A stretch of 64,000 nucleotides of DNA, from assembly GCF_029227855.1 (NCBI RefSeq), contig NZ_CP074356.1; one strand, 5' to 3'. The notes beneath the pieces were generated by a model, which searched no databases, had not been told where the DNA came from, and worked only from the letters and a program-made list of their open reading frames with translations. Below, piece after piece: positions 50,157-51,561 of the stretch. The stretch's first letter is position 1, and each line of letters opens with the position of its first letter. This DNA is from Escherichia coli. GTDB lineage: Bacteria > Pseudomonadota > Gammaproteobacteria > Enterobacterales > Enterobacteriaceae. Position numbers and translations under genes: made by a program.

Positions 50157-50487
50157 TCCCCGAGAAGTATAAAAAATGAACGATTTCGGTGATCAGTTGA
50201 GCGCGTGACAGTGCGCATAGCGTTGTGCTAAAAATTTTTATATATTCATATTAATTATGTAATTTAAATTACTAAAACTGACAAATATATATTCTAAATA
50301 ACAACTGGGTTATTCTTTAGCAATTAATGATTACATTGTAATAAATCATATTCTTTATCGATTATTTCAGGCAGTGTTGTGCCGAATTATGCAAGCGGTC
50401 AATTCGTTGTATATTTAATTATACAATGATTTCGGTGTTCTGGAATTAATTAGAGGAATCTATGCGAGGGAAAAACGCATTGGGTTA

Positions 50488-51561
50488 ATGTTTTTGCTGA
50501 TAGCGGTTGTGGTTGGTGGCGGCGGGTTATTGCTGGCGCAAAAAGCCTTACATAAAACGTCGGATACAGCATTTTGCCTTTCCTGCCACTCGATGAGTAA
50601 ACCTTTTGAGGAATATCAGGGAACTGTCCACTTTTCGAACCAGAAAGGGATACGTGCGGAATGTGCCGATTGCCATATTCCAAAGTCAGGGATGGATTAT
50701 TTATTCGCTAAATTAAAAGCATCTAAAGATATTTATCATGAATTTGTTAGCGGCAAAATAGACAGTGACGATAAGTTCGAAGCGCATCGCCAGGAAATGG
50801 CCGAAACAGTATGGAAAGAATTAAAAGCAACTGACTCTGCAAGGTGTCGTAGTTGCCATTCTTTTGATGCCATGGATATTGCCTCGCAAAGTGAATCTGC
50901 GCAGAAAATGCATAACAAAGCGCAAAAGGACGGCGAAACCTGTATCGATTGTCATAAAGGCATTGCCCATTTTCCACCAGAAATAAAAAAGGATGACAAC
51001 GCGGCGCATGAGCTGGAAAGTCAGGCCGCTACTTCAGTTACCAATGGCGCACATATTTATCCTTTCAAACCTTCTCGTATAGGCGAACTGGCTACCGTGA
51101 ATCCTGGTACCGATCTCACCGTCGTTGATGCCAGTGGCAAACAGCCGATCGTTCTGTTGCAGGGTTATCAAATGCAGGGCAGTGAAAACACGCTCTACCT
51201 GGCGGCAGGTCAACGGCTGGCGCTAGCCACATTAAGTGAAGAAGGTATCAAGGCGCTGACGGTAGACGGGGAATGGCAGGCTGACGAGTACGGCAATCAA
51301 TGGCGTCAGGCGTCTTTACAGGGTGTGCTTACCGATCCCGCATTAGCGGACCGTAAACCGCTATGGCAATACGCTGAAAAACTTGACGATACCTATTGCG
51401 CTGGTTGCCATGCCCCTATTGCCTCCGACCATTACACCGTCAATGCCTGGCCGTCCATTGCCAAAGGAATGGGGGCGCGAACCAGCATGAGCGAAAACGA
51501 ACTGGACATTTTGACGCGGTACTTCCAGTACAACGCCAAAGATATTACCGAGAAACAGTGA
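50488..51561 (+). CDS. torY: TMAO reductase III membrane c-type cytochrome TorY (NapC/NirT family); N-terminus apparently disrupted by a frameshift
   Basis: 357-aa ORF with CxxCH haem motifs (CLSCH, CADCH, CRSCH, CIDCH, CAGCH); in-frame upstream codons read ...EKRIGL with no start, while an SD-preceded ATG at 50462 lies in another frame. Confidence 0.75.

Follow-up and report, generated by a model that had tools for sequence, protein, structure and literature searches.

A rare, clonally inherited one-base deletion near the start of torY in Escherichia coli and its likely, tolerated effect on the cytochrome TorY

In the window, the 64,000-nt stretch of Escherichia coli contig NZ_CP074356.1 analyzed here, torY has lost one A from a run close to its start codon, so that five A residues (A5) stand where the species norm is six (A6). 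The deletion is genuine and clonally inherited, not an assembly error. We consider it likely that, in this clone, TorY can be made only by an inefficient restart at a downstream ATG, that the product lacks its basic N-terminal tip, and that the gene is hypomorphic or null, a loss that the cell would tolerate.

The arrangement at the 5' end of torY is made up of the following features:

50426..50449, + strand: upstream mini-ORF MISVFWN, with its stop TAA at 50447-50449 (from the sequence and its translation).
50452..50457, + strand: Shine-Dalgarno sequence (SD) AGAGGA of the canonical torY start, read from the sequence and invariant relative to K-12, EcN and 190693.
50462..50488, + strand: 5' remnant of torY, an 8-codon ORF encoding MRGKNALG, from ATG 50462-50464 to TAA 50486-50488 (translation).
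50471..50475, + strand: A5 homopolymer, the site of the 1-nt deletion (alignment and genome allele counts).
50488..50490, + strand: ATG corresponding to Met10 of full-length TorY, overlapping the stop of the 8-codon ORF as TAATG (from the sequence).
50488..51561, + strand: torY body, a 357-aa pentahaem cytochrome c of the NapC/NirT/TorC type minus its first nine residues (ORF and family models).
51586..54015, + strand: intact torZ, which encodes a molybdoenzyme and follows torY in the operon (open frame; RefSeq call in JNEC-KY178 converted to window numbering).

The ATG at 50462 lies four bases 3' of AGAGGA and is the annotated torY start in A6 genomes, where codons 4 and 5 read AAA AAA (Lys-Lys). 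In the window, the codons that follow this ATG are CGA GGG AAA AAC GCA TTG GGT and then TAA. The long torY frame, read back from ATG 50488, is open for 19 residues (ending in REKRIGL) as far as TGA 50428-50430; over this interval ATG, GTG and TTG are all absent, and the near-cognates are limited to CTG, ATT and ATC. ATG 50488 is the sole canonical start remaining for the torY body, and it is the one that PGAP takes in JNEC-KY178. Given that the ATG of the mini-ORF at 50426 runs into TAA 50447 in the window lineage, rescue of the torY frame from an upstream ATG is unavailable there. At the far end of the gene, torZ starts 24 nt past the torY stop.

Scans of the leader added little. A simple promoter and terminator scan, which is weak evidence, found no sigma-70-like promoter on the forward strand and no terminator, and folding of the RNA near the restart revealed no standout structure (z=0.29). 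The Rfam scan of the leader returned the upstream MicL and sub-threshold noise, and nothing else. The MicL match (RF02654, 289 bits) is strong and spans 49900-50155, covering the 3' part of cutC and just beyond, with its 5' end cut by the search range; we take it to be the known sRNA embedded in cutC, expected there and unrelated to the torY deletion.

The identity of the gene is clear. In an NCBIfam profile search the torY ORF matches TIGR02162 (torC, E=2.7e-91, 306.7 bits) and TIGR02161 (napC_nirT, E=9.7e-55); the score falls under the TorC equivalog cut-off, which is what a paralogue such as TorY should give, and RefSeq names the ORF torY. All five CxxCH haem motifs are present (CLSCH30, CADCH59, CRSCH120, CIDCH152 and CAGCH304 in 357-aa numbering). 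The gene sits between cutC and torZ, as it does in all E. coli (cutC-torY-torZ-cmoB), so torZ is immediately downstream, as in a TorY-type operon. What the 357-aa form lacks is the other TorY-type feature, a basic cytoplasmic segment before the membrane anchor: its hydrophobic 17-mer begins at residue 1. The K-12 gene (yecK) shares the locus, the SD, the ATG and the five CxxCH motifs, and matches the window at 348 of the 357 residues that the two have in common (9 substitutions). In contrast to the window, where A5 leaves an 8-codon stub, an ATG at codon 10 and 357 residues beyond it, K-12 torY has A6, TTG (Leu) at codon 10 and a 366-aa product.

The first-pass annotation had read a 1-nt deletion in the A-run from this sequence, and the SD, ATG 50462, the MRGKNALG peptide, the stop, the A5 run and the TAATG overlap are all as it described them. 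Alignment of K-12, EcN and 190693 reveals A6 at this position, together with the upstream start, and adding one A to the window sequence gives back a 366-aa TorY, just as had been proposed. Consistent with this, RefSeq calls torY as 1101 nt (366 aa) from the upstream ATG in four A6 genomes: K-12, EcN, 190693 and GMF054. The strong SD, the 1101-nt PGAP calls and the alignment of the nine residues to the TorC model together mark ATG 50462 as the true start; the model is entered at position 20 by the 357-aa form and at position 12, with a higher score, once the nine residues are restored.

To count alleles we used 30-32-mers centred on the run, such that any BLAST seed spans the whole run, against 5,426 complete E. 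coli genomes; a 42-mer count was dropped as it reached only 3,350 genomes, SNPs elsewhere breaking the 28-base megablast seed. A6 was found in 5,379 genomes (99.1%), A5 in 9 (0.17%) and A7 in none. The possibility, raised with the first-pass reading, that reference torY genes share the A5 run is therefore not borne out. The 31-mer across the run is identical in 5,378 genomes, and the nine A5 alleles are its sole length variation. With a tract of 6 nt, A5 this rare, A7 absent and A5 stably inherited within clones, the run does not have the properties of a phase-variable contingency locus.

The closest complete genome to the window is JNEC-KY178 (100.0% identity). They are distinct genomes, separated over 64 kb by 8 SNPs and an indel in an intergenic A-run, and both carry A5 in torY, so the allele predates their split. 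Exactly the 357-aa product of JNEC-KY178 is encoded on 5 Logan contigs, and inspection of DRR794473 and DRR794474 gave A5 in both. Another 4 Logan contigs encode the A5 protein inferred for the ancestor (T119, A309), and here too A5 was read from the sequence itself, in SRR10254033 and SRR18105866. A5 is thus carried by no fewer than four public read sets that were deposited in different archives and assembled independently, and the possibility raised at the outset that resequencing would reveal A6 here has gone the other way. RefSeq places a pseudogene flag on 0 of the 72 features across the region, and comparison with the next nearest genome, GMF054 (99.1%), reveals only 4 indels in 38 kb. 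No record exists of the 357-aa protein of the window itself (the R119 form), or of a full-length A6 protein with the K168 and D260 of this lineage, the two non-synonymous changes on the branch leading to the clone.

The restart ATG exists because this lineage already had a substitution at codon 10, which is TTG (Leu) in K-12 and EcN and ATG in the window lineage (L10M). An ATG at codon 10 occurs in 461 of the 5,426 genomes, nearly all of them A6, and this one T-to-A change is also the source of the TAA in the shifted frame. The UAAUG overlap is therefore a coincidence of an older L10M polymorphism and a new deletion, not a conserved or designed arrangement.

Can ribosomes restart there? E. coli gene pairs whose stop and start overlap are translationally coupled (PMC6728339), and the window resembles the pairs in that 2019 study in that a translated upstream frame, with its own SD and ATG, ends in a stop that has one base in common with the ATG following on that mRNA (TAATG, 50486-50490). 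It differs from them in two respects: the upstream frame is just 8 codons long, and ahead of the restart codon there is no internal SD of the kind on which most E. coli pairs depend. No SD lies 5-10 nt before ATG 50488; we found only GAGGG 17 nt and UGGG 3 nt upstream. An SD-like element at working distance was needed in 4 of the 5 pairs in that study, where its removal cut reinitiation by 60-90% or abolished it (PMC6728339). Restart at ATG 50488 is plausible but probably weak.

Together these observations suggest what happens to TorY. Ribosomes loading at the normal SD and ATG 50462 would make only MRGKNALG and stop at TAA 50486-50488, leaving ATG 50488 as the sole start for the remainder of torY. 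A fraction of the ribosomes that terminate there probably restarts at UAAUG, with low efficiency expected for want of a properly spaced SD, and we infer a product of 357 aa in which the anchor begins at residue 1 and the basic segment MRGKKRIGL is gone. This segment had been described as the part lost ahead of the anchor, and the charges bear this out: the net charge of the N-flank is 0 in the 357-aa form versus +4 in the restored protein, and that of the C-flank is +1 in both.

The basic segment normally keeps the N-terminus in the cytoplasm so that the haem domain is exported. By the positive-inside rule, a protein without the +4 flank is expected to insert less well in the N-in/C-out orientation, and the attachment of haem in the periplasm would suffer in turn. 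Signal sequences that lack basic N-regions can still be exported, though less efficiently, so the short TorY may retain some function. Each of the A5 genomes examined keeps the torY body open and retains the five haem motifs, and the branch leading to the clone carries 4 synonymous and 2 non-synonymous changes in torY, which is unremarkable and leaves no decay signature; these two observations suggest that any loss of function is recent or incomplete.

The A5 allele would be tolerated as chromosomal torYZ adds little to E. coli respiration. In the summary of Gon et al. (2000) given in PMC5122715, a strain with only torYZ does not grow on TMAO without overexpression of the operon, and the role that torYZ plays in E. 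coli physiology is described there as unknown. The first-pass annotation had offered a choice between a frameshifted gene and a shortened TorY expressed by restart at TAATG, and this is the right set of alternatives.

It is possible, though unlikely, that the deletion is real and near-neutral, with the UAAUG restart yielding enough 357-aa TorY, still inserted N-in/C-out, to leave the operon approximately unchanged. The overlap of stop and start, shared with the coupled gene pairs of PMC6728339, would allow this, and both the torY body and torZ are intact. The allele also persists in the window, in JNEC-KY178 and in about nine read sets from different submitters, and PGAP accepts the 357-aa ORF as an intact CDS. 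However, the distance of ATG 50488 from any useful SD predicts a large loss of reinitiation of the kind seen when SDs are removed, and with the whole +4 N-flank gone and the C-flank net positive the protein runs contrary to the positive-inside rule. The retention of A6 in 99.1% of genomes and two private non-synonymous changes next to haem motifs within the clone also argue against a deletion without effect.

These two changes are among the differences within the clone, which we polarised. One is derived in the window:

50842..50844, + strand: codon 119, AGG (Arg), the window-private T119R change directly before C120RSCH; the nine other genomes compared all have Thr.

The other, A309T, is derived in JNEC-KY178 and lies directly after CAGCH308. 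Two of the 8 SNPs within the clone thus fall in torY, both non-synonymous and both adjoining a CxxCH motif (binomial P=0.007, post hoc), a hint from the sequences of relaxed constraint. The weight of these two hits is tempered by the excess of non-synonymous changes that is typical of very recent divergence: 4 of the 5 coding SNPs between the clone members are non-synonymous, including 18716 in yecA (N77, K in JNEC-KY178) and 55593 in cmoA (G57, S in JNEC-KY178).

Elsewhere in the window, the uspC-flhD spacer (30351-31130), the 780-nt regulatory region of flhDC, holds 3 of the 8 clone SNPs (30360, 30541 and 30962); the window carries the derived state at two of them and JNEC-KY178 at the third (binomial P about 1e-4). 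The cluster suggests that, within the clone, regulation of motility is under selection or the region is a mutational hotspot.

At least four haplotypes besides that of the window are represented among the other eight A5 genomes. Five of them (CP53, NT1F31, W444, LCP22S3_I2 and Z1324SEC0014) form a pig clade that is identical over 1,700 nt, with isolates sampled in three provinces of China, in the UK and from one further source; C1 has a K-12-like haplotype, and ecoli019 and MB06234 each lie on a haplotype of their own. Being on haplotypes other than that of the window, these alleles arose independently of it. They share with the window the identical loss of one A in the same run and the intact torY body. 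Unlike the window, they have TTG at codon 10 and a stub of 12 codons that ends at TGA without an overlapping ATG, and an extra T in the leader means that, once an A is lost, the ATG corresponding to that of the mini-ORF at 50426 comes into frame with the torY body (the 378-aa PGAP call).

RefSeq and PGAP never flag the A5 frameshift, and their start calls are inconsistent among the alleles. In strain C1, PGAP starts torY at an ATC directly after the SD, giving 367 aa (positions 1713-2816 of the retrieved locus); in the pig clade it uses an upstream ATG with no visible SD, giving 378 aa (WP_124354253.1; four loci, positions 3968-5104). One member of the pig clade, CP53, has an IS5 inserted right against the torY SD (locus positions 2944-3924). 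IS5 is known to switch on cryptic operons elsewhere.

One could read this recurrence differently: loss of the same A on at least five haplotypes, in a pig clade as well as in a clinical clone, might reflect selection to down-tune torYZ and not mutational noise, with L10M turning what would be a disabling frameshift into a gene coupled to an upstream ORF. If so, TorY would depend entirely on restart behind an 8-codon leader, and would be tip-less and differently regulated or inserted. We regard this as improbable. Frameshift pseudogenes in homopolymers are well established in enterobacteria, and the window is like them in the loss of a single base from a short run, near the 5' end of a dispensable gene, scattered over several lineages. 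It is unlike the usual case in that a chance in-frame ATG at the new stop leaves 97.5% of the protein open to translation, and as a result the gene escapes being called a pseudogene by annotation pipelines.

It is very improbable that codon 10 is the true start in all E. coli, such that the A-run lies in the leader and the protein is untouched. Codon 10 is a possible start in every lineage, as either TTG or ATG. Against this reading, it is the upstream ATG that has a strong SD at the correct spacing, and codon 10 has none; the nine residues before it match the basic N-region of the TorC model and raise the score. The TorY of H. influenzae is also 366 aa long (PMC5122715), and a run lying in a leader sits poorly with a 31-mer so uniform that A5 in nine genomes is its only variant in length.

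Still less should we expect the frame to be restored during expression, with full-length TorY made by transcriptional slippage or −1 ribosomal frameshifting. Lys codons in A-runs are slippery in E. coli, as in the A AAA AAG of dnaX, but A5 is far below the run of about 8-9 that is needed for appreciable slippage by RNA polymerase. The GGG AAA AAC of the 8-codon frame is not an X XXY YYZ heptamer, the fold downstream offers no stimulatory structure (z=0.29, as above), and the arrangement is not conserved, since 5,379 of the 5,426 genomes are in frame with A6.

An artefact, in which the strain is truly A6 and the homopolymer was under-called, is just as hard to credit and already largely refuted: losses of single bases in A/T runs are a typical long-read error, the window has another private A6-to-A5 difference in the intergenic run at 62255/6, and the torY run varies across assemblies by deletions only (9) and by no insertions, but A5 is also present in a distinct clone-mate genome and in contigs from four read sets in different archives, none of the 72 features of the region is a frameshifted gene, and the five pig-clade assemblies, which come from different countries, are identical in haplotype and all have A5. 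The intergenic difference itself, at 62255-62260 in the yebB-yobI spacer, where JNEC-KY178 and GMF054 have A6, is either a real mutation or a homopolymer error.

The torY A5 allele is ordinary: a strain-level frameshift in a homopolymer, already deposited, affecting a dispensable gene, and nothing about it is mechanistically new. It has little import beyond the clone other than as a verified example of a frameshift that pipelines hide by moving the start codon: RefSeq carries an intact 357-aa CDS for JNEC-KY178, and calls of 367 and 378 aa with dubious starts for other A5 alleles. Masked in this way, A5 frameshifts slightly inflate the counts of intact torY across E. coli. If a role for torYZ were shown, for example in S-oxide or methionine-sulfoxide reduction as in Haemophilus, the A5 clones would be ready-made natural hypomorphs for comparison.
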